Origin: a virus
Taxonomy: Duplodnaviria > Heunggongvirae > Uroviricota > Caudoviricetes
IMG/VR virus record: IMGVR_UViG_2531839131_000018
Reading direction: 5' to 3' (one strand)
DNA length: 41,766 nucleotides
Below the pieces are notes generated by a model that was not told the origin of the DNA, did not search any database, and worked only from the letters and a program-made list of their open reading frames with translations. Positions within the stretch are counted from its first letter, which is position 1. The number at the start of each line of letters is the position of its first letter. Positions 4,133 through 11,999 of this stretch are shown piece by piece. The translations under genes were made by a program, and so were the position numbers.

Positions 4133-4324
4133 TTAAAGCCCTGCCGGGACTTCGTTATTATCCATGCGAATAACTTTATCGACCGGATAACAGTTACCGG
4201 GAATTTTCTGTTCCGCTGCGGCAGCCATGCATTCTTTCATTGAGCCGTATACGCCAGTAACCATGTCAACCGGTTCACCGGAAACAAGAAAAACCGTCAG
4301 AACAAGTGCAAATGTGGTATTCAT
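4133..4324 (-). CDS. Small secreted or membrane-anchored protein with N-terminal signal-like segment (63 aa)
   Basis: MNTTFALVLTVFLVSG hydrophobic N-terminus; its ATG overlaps the stop of the upstream gene (ATGA), indicating translational coupling. Confidence 0.5.
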   Translation of the reverse strand: MNTTFALVLTVFLVSGEPVDMVTGVYGSMKECMAAAAEQKIPGNCYPVDKVIRMDNNEVPAGL

Positions 4325-4509
4325 TGCCAGCATCCTTTTTGCATCAGGCGTAAACGGGCCAGCATTGAAACAATGCATATTTGATTTAATAGCTCCCGTT
4401 CGTGTTTTCTCTTATTAATGGCATCTTCAGTAAATACGGGGTTACTGATTTTGACACCAATTTCAAAACAACCTTCAGACGTATTGACGTTTGGTAATAA
4501 CGTTTCCAT
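4321..4509 (-). CDS. Hypothetical small early protein (62 aa), possibly Kil-like
   Basis: METLLPNVNTSEGC...; GAGGA Shine-Dalgarno 7 nt upstream of ATG; stop overlaps start of downstream gene. Confidence 0.5.
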   Translation of the reverse strand: METLLPNVNTSEGCFEIGVKISNPVFTEDAINKRKHERELLNQICIVSMLARLRLMQKGCWQ

Positions 4510-5091
4510 TATCGCGTCCTCAACAATGAATTTTGTGATGCGGTGCCTGGTGCCTCCAGGTGACGTTAACCAGTTAACAATTAACGCCGGATACAGAGAA
4601 CCCACCCATAAGAACCAATACGGAGGTCAACTAGCCTTTTTAACTGTTCCGCGTGCGCTTAGCCGCATTCACCGCATCACAAAATTCACTTTAAAAAGGG
4701 CGGCAGAGCAGTCACGGAGTAAAACTGATACCGCCAAACGTCACCAGAAAATTGATAACAGAGGGCGTTGCAGCGGAGTTGTCACTTAAGTGTATGGTCA
4801 ACCTGACAACCCGGTGCTTCATCGGGAAGACATGAACCCCCCGCCATACTTACCGCCGCGCCATTTCGCGGAGTGCCACAACCGGAAGCGCACGGTCGAC
4901 GAAAATTTAACGACAGGCTATCTATGAACCAGCTACCTCGCCGTGCGCTTTCGCGTTATGGTCTGACTTTTCAGGGAAATATCCTTTCAGTAAACTGTCA
5001 GTTCCGGATGCTCACCCGTGTCCGGCGCACGCACTCCACCTCACCCGTGGAGAACTCCTTAATTACCAACCTTAGCTTCGTTGGTTAGCTA

Positions 5092-5310
5092 TTAACGCGG
5101 GTATGTAATCATTCTGGCAATGCTTAATGCCGCTGCTTTTTCCAGCCTGGTGATATCCTGCTCCAGAGCGGACAGATTTTCAGCCTGCTTAGCCCTGGCT
5201 TCATTGGCCCATTTCAGATCCTGCGCTGCATTAATTTTCTGGCGCATCCACTCATAAAGTTCATCATCGGTATAGTCTGGCGCGATGATGACGGGTTCTC
5301 GTTTCTGCAT
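5092..5310 (-). CDS. Hypothetical small early protein (72 aa)
   Basis: MQKREPVIIAPDYTDDELYEWMRQ...; AAGGAG Shine-Dalgarno immediately upstream of the ATG. The same frame stays open upstream to 5907 but the internal start is better supported. Confidence 0.55.
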   Translation of the reverse strand: MQKREPVIIAPDYTDDELYEWMRQKINAAQDLKWANEARAKQAENLSALEQDITRLEKAAALSIARMITYPR

Positions 5311-5436
5311 GTCGACTCCTTGTGGTTCGTGTTGCCTGCTTTTAACCACATCAGGCGAGGTGGTATCCTGAAAGCCGACCAAAGCTTTACGGATAAATAA
5401 GTTATGTTGCAACCACCAATAAATCCGCTTAAAAAT

Positions 5437-5724
5437 ATGAAAATTGATTACTGGTATAAAGCACTTACAGTTGTTGGTGCTGCGTTGTTTGTCTTTAATG
5501 GAACATCTTTTTTTGACAGATACCCCGTTGTTCCACTGGCTTTTTTGTCCTCCGGTATTTTCTTCACTGGCCTTGGAGAGTGGATCAATCACCCTCTCAG
5601 AGTGAGATTTATTGGTCCCGGAGCCGTTGCCCGGGGGCATAACCGTTCTCCGTGCACACTCGGCATTATCTTCGATATATTGGGTGTCTGCCTGATTGTT
5701 ACAGGAGTCGTCAAATTCTTCTGA
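5437..5724 (+). CDS. Possible small membrane protein (about 95 aa), opposite strand to surrounding early genes; SieB-like superinfection-exclusion role is speculative
   Basis: Two hydrophobic helix-like segments (ALTVVGAALFVF, SSGIFFTGLGEW). No good Shine-Dalgarno; conflicts with an antisense ORF on the minus strand, so very uncertain. Confidence 0.25.
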   Translation: MKIDYWYKALTVVGAALFVFNGTSFFDRYPVVPLAFLSSGIFFTGLGEWINHPLRVRFIGPGAVARGHNRSPCTLGIIFDILGVCLIVTGVVKFF

Positions 5725-6005
5725 AGAGAATCCACACACAGGGCATACAACCGGAATACGGCAAATGATTTCACCCGGCTCGATGTGTGGGTACTCGCCA
5801 TCAATTTTTTGTTGCTCCCGTATGCCCATGTTGACCTCATTTCCCCTTAACGCCGGGGTAGCGGAACAAAAACCTGCTGCATAGTTAAAGTTGAACCCTG
5901 CCGTCATGTTCTTACGCCTCGGGCTGGCTACTTAACCCCTGACCACTGCCTGGTAACTCGAAGTATTGCCCGGCGTTCTGTGGGGCGGGGTGGGTTGGTG
6001 AACAC

Positions 6006-6035
6006 ATCATAAAACACACAAAATGTGTTAGTCAA
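6006..6035 (-). promoter_or_regulatory. Candidate leftward early promoter (PL-like) overlapping palindromic operator-like sites
   Basis: On the minus strand TTGACT (reverse complement of 6030-6035), 18-nt spacer, TATGAT (reverse complement of 6006-6011); palindromes AACACAT..ATGTGTT (6001-6029) and ACAC-A7-GTGT (6035-6049) overlap it. Confidence 0.4.
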
Positions 6036-6057
6036 CACAAAAAAAGTGTATAAAGGG

Positions 6058-6089
6058 ATAAAAAACTCCCATTCAAGAGGCGATGGGAG
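6058..6089 (-). terminator. Rho-independent terminator after the ParE-like gene
   Basis: Hairpin CTCCCAT-N10-ATGGGAG (6066-6089) followed on the minus strand by a U-run (A-run 6060-6065 on plus). Confidence 0.5.
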
Positions 6090-6097
6090 GTGGTTAG

Positions 6098-6388
6098 TTA
6101 TTCGCTGTTACTGGGATATTGTTGGCGAGCATGTGCCACGCTTACAATTTCAATGCTTGAGGCAGCTACTTTGTACAGTATTATGTAGTTAGGGTGAGCC
6201 ACTATCTCTCTCAATCCAGAAACCCGTTCGCTTGGCGGATATAGGTACGGATGCTCAGATAGGGGTAGTACAGATGTTTCAATGCGTATTTTTAGTCTGC
6301 GCGCTGCCGGAGGGTTCTCCTTGGCGATGTAAGTTATGATCTGACGCAAATCATCGCGAGCAGACGGTAACCATAATATGGGCAGCAT
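6098..6388 (-). CDS. parE: ParE/RelE-superfamily type II toxin (96 aa)
   Basis: MLPILWLPSARDDLRQIITYIAKENPPAARRLKIRIETSVLPLSEHPYLY..GLREIVAHPNYIILYKV..IEIVSVAHARQ matches the ParE pattern; start overlaps antitoxin stop by 1 nt. Confidence 0.8.
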   Translation of the reverse strand: MLPILWLPSARDDLRQIITYIAKENPPAARRLKIRIETSVLPLSEHPYLYPPSERVSGLREIVAHPNYIILYKVAASSIEIVSVAHARQQYPSNSE

Positions 6389-6579
6389 TACACGCTCTCG
6401 CTTTCCGTGGCAATTTGATTGATGATTTTTTCCATTTTTGCCATTACTTCGTCGTGCGGAATTGCCGGGCGTGGATCTGCCAAACTTGCTGCAACCTTGG
6501 CGCGCAACCATTCGTTATAGCTGTTTTCTTGCTCGATAGTTTCAAATTCTGAGACTATTGGCGAAAGAACCGTGTTCAT
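6388..6579 (-). CDS. Small antitoxin (63 aa), PaaA2-like by size and position
   Basis: 63-aa acidic ORF directly upstream of and overlapping the ParE-like gene; GAGAGG Shine-Dalgarno 6 nt upstream. Resemblance to PaaA2 of the PaaR2-PaaA2-ParE2 module is from memory. Confidence 0.7.
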   Translation of the reverse strand: MNTVLSPIVSEFETIEQENSYNEWLRAKVAASLADPRPAIPHDEVMAKMEKIINQIATESESV

Positions 6580-6605
6580 AATATACCTCTCCCGTATGGT
6601 TGTGA

Positions 6606-7004
6606 TTATGCTCGACGTCCTTTTTGAGCGGCGAGCCATCTTGCAACGGTGCGATCCATTGATTCTTTTTTGTCTTTCATGTCCTTAAGCATTTGTTCTT
6701 GCTCTTCTTCTGGGAACGCCCCAAATGTTTGAAGTAAATCTCTTTGGCGCGGACCTATTTTCATTGAGTCAGGCACTACAACCTGTTCATCCTCGCTCGG
6801 AGGAAGCATGAACCAAAAAATAGGTCGTGCGGTTATTTGTGAAAGTCGATCTAAATTGTCAGGATTTGGACTAACCAAGCCCGCAGCCCATCGCTGCACT
6901 GTTTGTTGCGACACCCCAACTAATTTCCCAAGCTCCGCTTGACTCCAGCCTGTTTCAGACAAGAGTTTCTTTATTCTATATGCAGTGATCTCGAGTGTTT
7001 TCAT
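6606..7004 (-). CDS. HTH (XRE/Cro-CI family) repressor, RacR/PaaR2-like; likely prophage immunity repressor (132 aa)
   Basis: HTH motif SQAELGKLVGVSQQTVQRWAAG; divergent from a Cro-like gene; operator-like palindromes in the 7005-7110 intergenic region; co-oriented with the downstream toxin pair. Confidence 0.75.
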   Translation of the reverse strand: MKTLEITAYRIKKLLSETGWSQAELGKLVGVSQQTVQRWAAGLVSPNPDNLDRLSQITARPIFWFMLPPSEDEQVVVPDSMKIGPRQRDLLQTFGAFPEEEQEQMLKDMKDKKESMDRTVARWLAAQKGRRA

Positions 7005-7040
7005 ACCAACAATTCTACTCAAAAAATGAGTAATACGCGA

Positions 7041-7080
7041 CACACAAAAAACGAGTTTACACATACACGTTTTTTGTGTA
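7041..7080. promoter_or_regulatory. Operator-like inverted repeat in the divergent repressor/cro intergenic region
   Basis: ACACAAAAAACG (7042-7053) and CGTTTTTTGTGT (7068-7079) are near-perfect reverse complements; candidate -35 TTTACA at 7056-7061 lies between them. Confidence 0.45.
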
Positions 7081-7110
7081 ACCTCCTTTCGCATAATGGA
7101 GGTACAAATA

Positions 7111-7383
7111 ATGAATGAACATATTAAGAAAAAGGTTGCGGAAAAATTCTCCCAGCGAGAACTGGCTATGCTGATGAGCACGAAACAACAAAGTGTATCT
7201 CGTTGGTTCAACTCTAAGTTCCCTGCATCAAGGGTGATTCATTTGTGTCAATTGATGCAGTGGGAGGTTGTTCCCCATGAGCTCCGACCAGACATATACC
7301 CTAACCCAACCGACGGTTTACCTGTTGGATTCAAGGTTAACACATCAAATGCACCGGAGTTGATTCATGAAAATCAAGCATGA
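7111..7383 (+). CDS. Cro-like / YdaS-like HTH protein (90 aa)
   Basis: GGAGGT Shine-Dalgarno 6 nt upstream; HTH-like segment SQRELAMLMSTKQQSVSRWF; divergent from the repressor. Confidence 0.65.
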   Translation: MNEHIKKKVAEKFSQRELAMLMSTKQQSVSRWFNSKFPASRVIHLCQLMQWEVVPHELRPDIYPNPTDGLPVGFKVNTSNAPELIHENQA

Positions 7384-7792
7384 ACACATCCGCATGGCGA
7401 TGAATGCCTGGGCGCATCCGGACGGCGAGAAAGTACCGGCTGCAGAGATTGCCAAAGCGTATTTTGAGCTGGGAATGACGTTTCCTGAACTGTACGGCTA
7501 CAGCCATCCGGAAGCCCTGGCTCGCAATACTCAGAAAATATTCCGCTGGGTGGAGAAAGACACCCCTGATGCTGTTGAAAAAATTCAGGCGTTGTTACCA
7601 GCGATCGAAAAAGCAATGCCACCTCTGCTGGTGGCCAGAATGCGCAGCCACAGTTCAGCTTATTTTCGGGAGCTGGTGGAGACGCGGGAGCGACTGGTGA
7701 GAGACGCTGATGATTTTGTCGCAGTGGCGATCGCTGGTTTCAACCAGATGAATCGTGGTGGTCCGGCAGGTAATGCAGTGGCTGTACATTAA
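7367..7792 (+). CDS. YdaT-like protein (141 aa; CII-like or toxin-like family, function uncertain)
   Basis: Position directly after the cro-like gene with overlapping start; length and composition fit YdaT-like proteins of Rac-type prophages (from memory). Confidence 0.55.
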   Translation: MKIKHEHIRMAMNAWAHPDGEKVPAAEIAKAYFELGMTFPELYGYSHPEALARNTQKIFRWVEKDTPDAVEKIQALLPAIEKAMPPLLVARMRSHSSAYFRELVETRERLVRDADDFVAVAIAGFNQMNRGGPAGNAVAVH

Positions 7793-7811
7793 GAACGTTT
7801 ATGGGGTTAGG

Positions 7812-11632: not shown

Positions 11633-11843
11633 AAACGGTTTGCAGTGAAAGGGGAGTTAAGTAGAATTGCTGCGGGTGCTTGAGGCTATCTGTCTCAGGC
11701 ATGAACACCAAAAGGCAGATAGAGAAAAGCCCCAGTTAACATTACGCGTCCTGCAAGACGCTTAACATTAATCTGAGGCCCAATCTATGTCTCACAAATG
11801 TAGGTTAGCCTCTTACGTGCCGAAAGGCAAGGAGAAGCAGGCT

Positions 11844-11999
11844 ATGAAGCAGCAAAAGGCGATGTTAATCGCCCTTATCGTCATCTGTTTAACCGTCATA
11901 GTGACGGCACTGGTAACGAGGAAAGACCTCTGCGAGGTACGAATCCGAACCGGCCAGACGGAGGTCGCTGTCTTCACAGCTTACGAACCTGAGGAGTAA
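11844..11999 (+). CDS. hok: Hok/Gef-family type I toxin (51 aa), closest to HokD/RelF from memory
   Basis: MKQQKAMLIALIVICLTVIVTALVTRKDLCEVRIRTGQTEVAVFTAYEPEE shows the Hok signature (transmembrane segment, conserved Cys, C-terminal EVAVF..YE); an in-frame upstream ATG at 11787 gives a mok-like extension. Confidence 0.85.
   Translation: MKQQKAMLIALIVICLTVIVTALVTRKDLCEVRIRTGQTEVAVFTAYEPEE

Follow-up and report, generated by a model that had tools for sequence, protein, structure and literature searches.

A lambdoid immunity region with five candidate operators of ACAC-N7-GTGT type and a ParE toxin–antitoxin pair in the predicted repressor operon

Comparison with described immunity switches

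The closest described system is the immunity region of prophage CP-933P, in which the CI-like PaaR2 and the Cro-like YdaS bind the right operator (OR) and repress the rightward and leftward early promoters (PR and PL), according to electrophoretic mobility shift assays, footprinting and gfp fusions (Jurenas et al. 2021, PMC8630535). The promoter of the repressor-antitoxin-toxin operon (the repressor maintenance promoter, PRM) is also under PaaR2/YdaS control and is activated by low PaaR2; paaR2 is leaderless, PaaR2 octamerises and has no RecA-cleavage motif, the antitoxin PaaA2 is devoid of a DNA-binding domain, and YdaT activates the repressor establishment promoter PRE (PMC8630535). YdaT was footprinted on TTGATT-N6-AATCAA at the ydaS/ydaT junction (Prolic-Kalinsek et al. 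2023, PMC9986795). The current study concerns a 41,766-bp stretch of viral DNA (IMG/VR record IMGVR_UViG_2531839131_000018, Caudoviricetes), the whole of which is called the window below. Positions 5900-7800 of the window are a lambdoid immunity region. Judged from the sequence, five 15-bp palindromes within it are with high probability the left and right operators (OL and OR) of a lambda-type bistable immunity switch, whose repressor operon includes a ParE toxin–antitoxin (TA) pair.

From left to right, the region contains OL/PL, a terminator, the genes for ParE, PaaA and the repressor, the sites OR3, OR2 and OR1, a cro-like gene, a YdaT box and ydaT, and the replication genes come after ydaT on the plus strand. 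The true CP-933P locus (Sp12, E. coli O157:H7), retrieved via the primers in Table S3 of the published study, has the same order: PL/OL, ParE, PaaA, a short non-cleavable repressor, PRM/OR/PR, a cro-like gene, the YdaT box and ydaT. PaaA is 73%, ParE 66% and YdaT 84% identical between the two, the TTGATT-N6-AATCAA box is the same, and the last 55 amino acids of the window's repressor (residues 78-132) are 53% identical to PaaR2. CP-933P is cryptic, whereas the window looks like a full-length prophage, and three OL sites were reported for CP-933P as against two in the window. An O157 locus (L002) with a repressor 61% identical to the window's was rejected as the source of CP-933P PaaR2: the true locus shows a different protein, which shares the C-terminal domain alone, and unrelated operators. 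The architecture is known experimentally from CP-933P, while the DNA-recognition specificity of the window's switch is new.

Likenesses to phage lambda include divergent PRM and PR, a tripartite OR, operators of the same family at PL, an apparently leaderless repressor mRNA, accessory genes that share the repressor's transcript (cI-rexA-rexB in lambda), a terminator before OL, and operator centres similarly spaced, at 21-25 bp. Sequence homology to lambda is absent, however, and the window's repressor has no autocleavage domain; the TA pair replaces rexAB, YdaT replaces CII, and two OL sites were detected instead of three. Phage 434 has a repressor of the same helix-turn-helix (HTH) class, with Gln-Gln opening the recognition helix, half-sites beginning with ACA, an A/T-rich operator centre, and operators common to repressor and Cro, three of them at OR. 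The 434 operator is 14 bp long (ACAA-N6-TTGT), in contrast to 15 bp (N7) in the window, and at helix position 6 it is Gln that goes with A at base 4, not Arg with C. Identity to the 434 repressor is weak (27% over 59 amino acids), and the C-terminal domain in the window is not a RecA-cleavable S24 domain. The repressors DicA (Qin) and those of Gifsy-1 and Gifsy-2 are 32-35% identical to the window's over about 85-90% of the length, similar in size and likewise without S24, but their recognition helices differ, and presumably their operators do too.

Operator-like sites at the early promoters

It had been proposed from the sequence that ACAC..GTGT palindromes lie at both ends of the toxin-repressor operon. 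Three exact ACAC-N7-GTGT sites were found in the window (6014-6028, 6035-6049 and 7065-7079; 0.68 expected), all within the stretches named in that proposal (6001-6049 and 7041-7080). The looser pattern AC(A/T)C-N7-G(A/T)GT matched exactly five 15-bp sites (about 1.8 expected window-wide), adding 7042-7056 (ACAC..GAGT) and 7017-7031 (ACTC..GAGT) to the exact trio, and all five lie in two intergenic regions. A repeat search likewise grouped the two added sites with the exact ones. Scores in the following list are from a position weight matrix (PWM) described below.

6014..6028, unstranded: OL1, ACACACAAAATGTGT, inside the PL spacer; exact match; PWM 18.6 bits, rank 3; half-sites kept among alleles
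6035..6049, unstranded: OL2, ACACAAAAAAAGTGT, abutting the PL -35 or overlapping it by one base; exact match; PWM 19.1 bits, rank 2
7017..7031, unstranded: OR3, ACTCAAAAAATGAGT, in the PRM spacer; member of the repeat family; PWM 17.3 bits, rank 5
7042..7056, unstranded: OR2, ACACAAAAAACGAGT, between the PRM -35 and the PR -35; one-mismatch match; PWM 17.8 bits, rank 4
7065..7079, unstranded: OR1, ACACGTTTTTTGTGT, in the PR spacer and reaching the -10; exact match; PWM 19.4 bits, rank 1

From start to start, the left-hand sites are 21 bp apart and the right-hand ones 25 and 23 bp; the right-hand trio (7017-7079) occupies the 106 bp that separate the repressor start (7004) from the cro start (7111). 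All five sites begin with AC(A/T), and the N7 spacing is common to them and to all sites of the related loci. OL2 is 94% complementary to a 17-mer at OR1, while OR3 is the most degenerate of the five. On the right, the operator motif was confirmed as three separate sites and not a single composite palindrome; of these, 7017-7031 had been missed. On the left, the sites at 6014 and 6035 stood, and the ACAC at 6002-6005, near the left end of the range named in the proposal, proved to be partnerless. This half-site is also low-scoring and varies among alleles, and was rejected as a third OL site.

Palindromes of this kind could arise by chance in A+T-rich intergenic DNA, and three exact matches were indeed reached in two of 100 whole-window shuffles. 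Simulations matched to the A+T-rich composition of these two regions, on the other hand, reached at least three sites in none of 20,000 runs. The PWM was trained solely on the sites of two related loci (L003, from Rahnella sp., and L010), whose repressors share 71-73% identity with the window's. It placed the five sites at ranks 1-5 in 41.7 kb (17.3-19.4 bits), the next position scoring 13.2. Together with the clustering of the sites and the conservation and covariation described below, these results effectively refute chance as an explanation.

The sites were compared with the positions of three promoters.

6006..6035, minus strand: PL-like leftward early promoter, -35 TTGACT (6030-6035), 18-bp spacer, -10 TATGAT (6006-6011); 10/12 in a consensus scan
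7056..7084, plus strand: predicted PR, -35 TTTACA (7056-7061), 17-bp spacer, -10 TAACCT (7079-7084); from position and homology only
7011..7039, minus strand: predicted PRM, -10 TAGAAT (7011-7016), weak -35 CGCGTA (7034-7039); read from the sequence

A strong leftward promoter had been expected at 6001-6049, and the PL-like promoter carrying the left pair of sites (6014-6049), TTGACT-18-TATGAT on the minus strand from 6035 to 6006, was the sole strong promoter in 5700-7500 on the consensus scan. OL1 fills its spacer and OL2 adjoins its -35. At the predicted PR, OR1 lies in the spacer and OR2 ends on the -35; at the predicted PRM, OR3 lies in the spacer and OR2 beside the weak -35. The three promoters are alike in that the first base of the -10 hexamer is the last T of an operator, this being the last T of OR3 in the case of PRM. 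The PR of related loci reads TTGAxx-18-TAnnCT, again with the last T of the operator as the first -10 base.

The close fit of sites and promoters raises the question whether promoter architecture (A/T tracts in spacers, UP-like regions) produces the palindromes as a by-product, or whether they are targets of a host factor. The site centres are A/T tracts oriented with transcription, and positions 6024-6039 read TGTGTTAGTCAACACA, a TGTGT-N6-ACACA element at the OL1/OL2 junction that agrees with the CRP core at 8/10 positions and has its centre on the PL -35. However, the OL1-OL2 spacing ranges from 21 to 29 bp in related loci, so this CRP-like site is not kept and was rejected as probably incidental. 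The conserved positions are the ACAC/GTGT ends and not the A/T centres, and these ends co-vary with helices encoded by the phage, which makes promoter by-products or host-factor targets quite improbable and favours phage operators.

Conservation was examined in about 140 loci encoding relatives of the repressor, taken from IMG/VR, GTDB genomes, E. coli genomes and other public assemblies (NCBI, Logan); the comparative data come mostly from IMG/VR, and one genome-contig scan yielded just two loci. In 12 scanned loci, about 33 of 39 exact ACAN-N7-NTGT sites lie at two places, namely 20-90 bp ahead of the repressor gene and, in loci long enough to include it, just downstream of the repressor operon. 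The downstream sites sit on a leftward promoter containing TTGAC, in an operator/-35/operator/-10 design. The same immunity type, defined by a repressor at least 98% identical, is represented by 10 distinct OR and 9 distinct OL sequences (the window plus 9 and 8 alleles). Among these alleles, 2 of 40 half-site positions vary, compared with 8 of 35 central and 26 of 91 other intergenic positions (Fisher p = 0.002). The two varying half-site positions are 7054, the non-consensus base of OR2, and 6026 in OL1. The half-sites are conserved while spacers and central bases drift. The original prediction had turned on conservation of the motif in related prophages, and the sites are kept at both places.

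The immunity type is present in many assemblies, most of them apparently from E. coli. A megablast search of 5700-7500 against 50,697 phage records gave matches to the flanks only, and no deposited phage with this immunity type was found (tblastn and megablast), the best repressor match being below 60% identity. The best whole-length tblastn matches of the repressor are 31-35% identical (DicA-like, Gifsy-1/-2), and other matches (45-50% identity) cover the N-terminal half only. The CI proteins of Phi467 and Stx2_95 were rejected as the same type, since their helix (AQSVQYW) and repeats differ.

The region has sharp mosaic boundaries at 5900-6000 and 7240-7383. The 100 bp transcribed from PL are near-identical in heteroimmune prophages, with divergence beginning at the PL -10/+1. 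A 1501-bp query including these 100 bp matched 3,730 of 5,426 complete E. coli genomes, many of the matches covering only the first ~100 bp.

Recognition helices and operator base 4

The two proteins expected to use the sites are the following.

6606..7004, minus strand: immunity repressor, 132 amino acids; Pfam HTH_3 (5.8e-11), no other domain type
7111..7383, plus strand: cro-like gene, 90 amino acids; Pfam YdaS_toxin (8e-10), PDB match to Xfaso1 Cro

The repressor combines a 434/P22-like HTH, with PDB matches to the P22 C2 and 434 N-terminal domains, and a PaaR2/DicA-like C-terminal domain; Pfam gives HTH families only, with no S24 peptidase (autocleavage) domain. Its recognition helix reads S-Q33-Q34-T-V-Q-R38-W. 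That of Cro reads K-Q-Q-S-V-S-R-W, in an HTH 47% identical to the repressor's.

Base 4 of the half-site tracks helix residue 6 in repressor and Cro alike, Arg going with ACAC and Gln or Leu with ACAG or ACAA. In the Arg loci (the window, L001, L003 and L010), where the repressor has QQTVQRW and Cro has QQxxSRW, C stands at half-site position 4 in 38 of 40 cases. The Gln loci have QQTVQQW in the repressor and ..WQW, ..AQW or ..SLW in Cro; here C stands at position 4 in none of 50 cases, and G or A in all 50. A GC-rich phage locus (L057), whose repressor is only 30% identical and has the same Arg helix, also carries ACAC-N7-GTGT sites upstream. In crystal structures of 434, ACA is read by Gln28 and Gln29, and base pair 4 by residue 33. 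The recognition helices align with no gap, so that Q33, Q34 and R38 of the window match Q28, Q29 and Q33 of 434, and by this analogy a contact of Arg38 with the G opposite C4 is the natural reading.

These data make it very likely, on sequence grounds, that Cro shares the five sites with the repressor. The alternative is that the sites serve one regulator only, either Cro alone with the repressor at another, unrecognised motif, or the reverse. In CP-933P two overlapping repeat classes were described and the exact PaaR2 and YdaS sequences were left open by the authors (PMC8630535), and the half-sites of OR3 (ACTC) are unlike those of OR1. Against this, the HTH identity of the two proteins extends to the QQ..RW positions common to both, the change from Arg to Gln or Leu occurs in both together with the operator base, and the repeat search revealed no second repeated motif common to OL and OR. 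Use by a single regulator is therefore unlikely, and sharing by repressor and Cro is preferred.

Several observations weigh against the interpretation of the sites as operators of a CP-933P-like switch read by this helix. PR (-10 TAACCT) and PRM fell below the threshold of the consensus promoter scan, so both rest on their position and on the same arrangement in relatives. The N-terminal DNA-binding domains of the window's repressor and PaaR2 do not align, and the Cro proteins have no detectable similarity. The operators of CP-933P are TTTAGT/ACTAAA repeats with no ACAC-N7-GTGT, and the window has none of these repeats. Since DNA-binding domain, Cro and operators are non-homologous, the CP-933P precedent covers the architecture only, by analogy. 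The helix-to-base relationship is not universal either: of two clades with Lys at position 6, one has GTGT half-sites and the other TTGT. A further clade (L133-L141) carries a window-like Arg-helix repressor with no ACAC-N7-GTGT within 2.5 kb. Finally, the related loci are phylogenetically non-independent and represent about four Arg and about five Gln lineages.

The Lys variants occur among repressors with the same C-terminal domain (L072-L081, L119-L123; L083, L126-L129). Loci with QQSVQKW have three AAAGTGT half-sites with degenerate partners, and those with QQTIQKW have AAGG/AAAG-TTGT half-sites. A simple rule by which any basic residue at helix position 6 would specify C at base 4 was rejected, as it fails in the QQTIQKW clade. 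The half-sites of the Lys variants indicate that specificity is set by more than helix position 6.

The loci L133-L141 (e.g. L133, 1915-3225) have tandem repressors: a PaaR2-like CI (123 amino acids) with its own Cro and TTAAGTT-type repeats, followed in order by the Arg-helix (QQSVQRW) repressor, PaaA and ParE. This orphan Arg-helix repressor may by itself confer immunity to phages of the same type as the window.

Tentatively, and with somewhat less than even confidence, the Arg/Gln loci are viewed as a natural one-residue specificity switch, in which helix position 6 changes in step in repressor and Cro, among short lambdoid repressors with a 434-like HTH and 15-bp ACAN-N7-NTGT operators. 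If so, heteroimmune phages arise from otherwise mosaic-identical immunity regions, and R38Q in both repressor and Cro should convert the window's immunity to that of the O157-type relative L002. The correlation between Arg/Gln and base 4 is the only part with some wider interest, as a simple and directly testable handle on the evolution of heteroimmunity, and it may also aid in assigning the register of the operators within this family of repressors. When Arg-type and Gln-type loci are compared, Cro differs in its HTH half and is nearly identical in its C-terminal half.

The proposed switch and the genes around it

Downstream of the repressor, the minus strand carries the TA pair and a probable terminator.

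6388..6579, minus strand: PaaA-type antitoxin gene, 63 amino acids; Pfam PaaA2 (1.7e-22); 73% identical to CP-933P PaaA2
6098..6388, minus strand: ParE-family toxin gene, 96 amino acids; Pfam ParE_toxin (2.9e-17); 66% identical to CP-933P ParE2; called in identical loci
6059..6089, minus strand: hairpin (6066-6089) and T-run (6059-6065), directly right of OL2; likely intrinsic terminator of the repressor-antitoxin-toxin operon

The gap between the repressor and PaaA is 26 nt, and the PaaA stop overlaps the ParE start by 1 nt. Folding of the hairpin RNA (-9.8 kcal/mol, z = -2.3) gives moderate support. A simple terminator scan missed it, probably on account of the 10-nt loop that the uninterrupted 7-bp stem leaves, since the scan accepts loops of 3-8 nt. 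An equivalent hairpin and T-run was seen in most relatives (L001, L002, L003, L009, L011, L042) and was not evident in L010, L053 and L056. Between the repressor stop and the antitoxin start, a promoter-like ATCACA-17-TATTAT (9/12; 6578-6606, minus strand) could allow TA expression independent of the repressor.

In most type II TA operons the complex of antitoxin and toxin acts as autoregulator, and the sites might serve such classical control, with a PaaA-ParE complex binding its own promoter. The 63-amino-acid PaaA, however, matched Pfam through the 33-residue ParE-binding PaaA2 motif alone and has no DNA-binding domain, which is also true of PaaA2 itself (PMC8630535). Moreover, the sites are present on PL, a promoter that does not serve the TA pair, and the related locus L056 has both site clusters with apparently no room for a TA pair, its OL lying ~465 bp after the repressor start. 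Classical TA autoregulation is accordingly highly improbable, and control by the phage repressor and Cro remains the preferred explanation.

The original prediction was that one repressor controls the rightward and leftward promoters as well as its own operon, including the toxin. The layout, the shared motif, the helix covariation and the analogy to CP-933P support such a scheme, which would operate as follows. In the lysogen, repressor dimers at OR1 and OR2 would shut PR, and with it cro, ydaT and the replication genes, while dimers at OL1 and OL2 would shut PL. Recognition would be 434-like, with Gln33 and Gln34 reading ACA and Arg38 reading the G opposite C4, and the A/T-rich central 7 bp are probably uncontacted. 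Repressor bound at OR2, next to the weak PRM -35, probably stimulates PRM, and OR3, in the PRM spacer, would serve to repress PRM once the repressor becomes abundant. Oligomerisation is probable for the PaaR2-like C-terminal domain, which may also loop OL to OR across the roughly 1 kb between them. PRM is predicted to give a leaderless mRNA for the repressor, PaaA and ParE that ends at the hairpin just before OL2. The TA genes would be part of this transcript, so the toxin pair would come under the same control. Cro, with the same QQ...RW helix, would turn the repressor off via the same sites and flip the switch.

The repressor mRNA may be leaderless, as the sequence puts the ATG 7 nt downstream of the PRM -10 TAGAAT with no Shine-Dalgarno sequence. 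The distance of 6-7 nt between -10 and ATG is preserved in the PRM of the relatives.

Establishment of repression would depend on ydaT and its box.

7367..7792, plus strand: ydaT, functional CII analogue, 141 amino acids; Pfam YdaT_toxin; 84% identical to CP-933P YdaT
7360..7377, unstranded: YdaT (CII-like) box, TTGATTCATGAAAATCAA, at the cro/ydaT junction; marks the region of a PRE-like establishment promoter

TTGATT-N6-AATCAA occurs exactly once in the window, at 7360-7377, and YdaT bound there would start repressor synthesis from a PRE-like promoter. Gifsy repressors are inactivated by LexA-controlled antirepressors; SOS-controlled antirepression via a LexA box was considered for the window and rejected, as there is no CTGT-N8-ACAG anywhere in its 41.7 kb.

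The leftward operon leads, by synteny, to two division inhibitors. The antisense RNA DicF (4698-4749, minus strand; Rfam, 76.7 bits) and the gene for the cell-division inhibitor DicB (4321-4509, minus strand) lie 3' of the PL-like promoter, as in the dicB operon of Qin, where the leftward operon repressed by DicA contains dicF and dicB. By analogy, the left operators probably keep the division inhibitors silent. One switch would silence the lytic genes, set expression of the ParE toxin–antitoxin pair and, by synteny, keep DicF and DicB off. The current understanding of phage switches is unchanged by these results, which add a precise operator map for one more lambdoid immunity type, with five sites, their promoter overlaps and a predicted affinity order. 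For the repressor this order is expected to be OR1 ≈ OL2 ≈ OL1 > OR2 > OR3, and at OR Cro may follow the opposite one.

The first ORF (open reading frame) downstream of PL encodes 271 amino acids (5092-5907, minus strand), and the same gene in locus L062 has no recorded Pfam hit. Relatives carry YdfA/YdfB (DUF1391) at this place. An ORF of 106 amino acids (5404-5724, plus strand) lies antisense within it and has no Pfam match.

Elsewhere in the window, a match to the sok antitoxin RNA was detected at 11674-11849 (plus strand; Rfam RF01794, 120 bits), pointing to a hok/sok-type type I TA locus in the same prophage besides ParE/PaaA. Two tRNA genes (Rfam; 17042-17114 and 17215-17288, plus strand) are found some 10 kb rightward of the immunity region.

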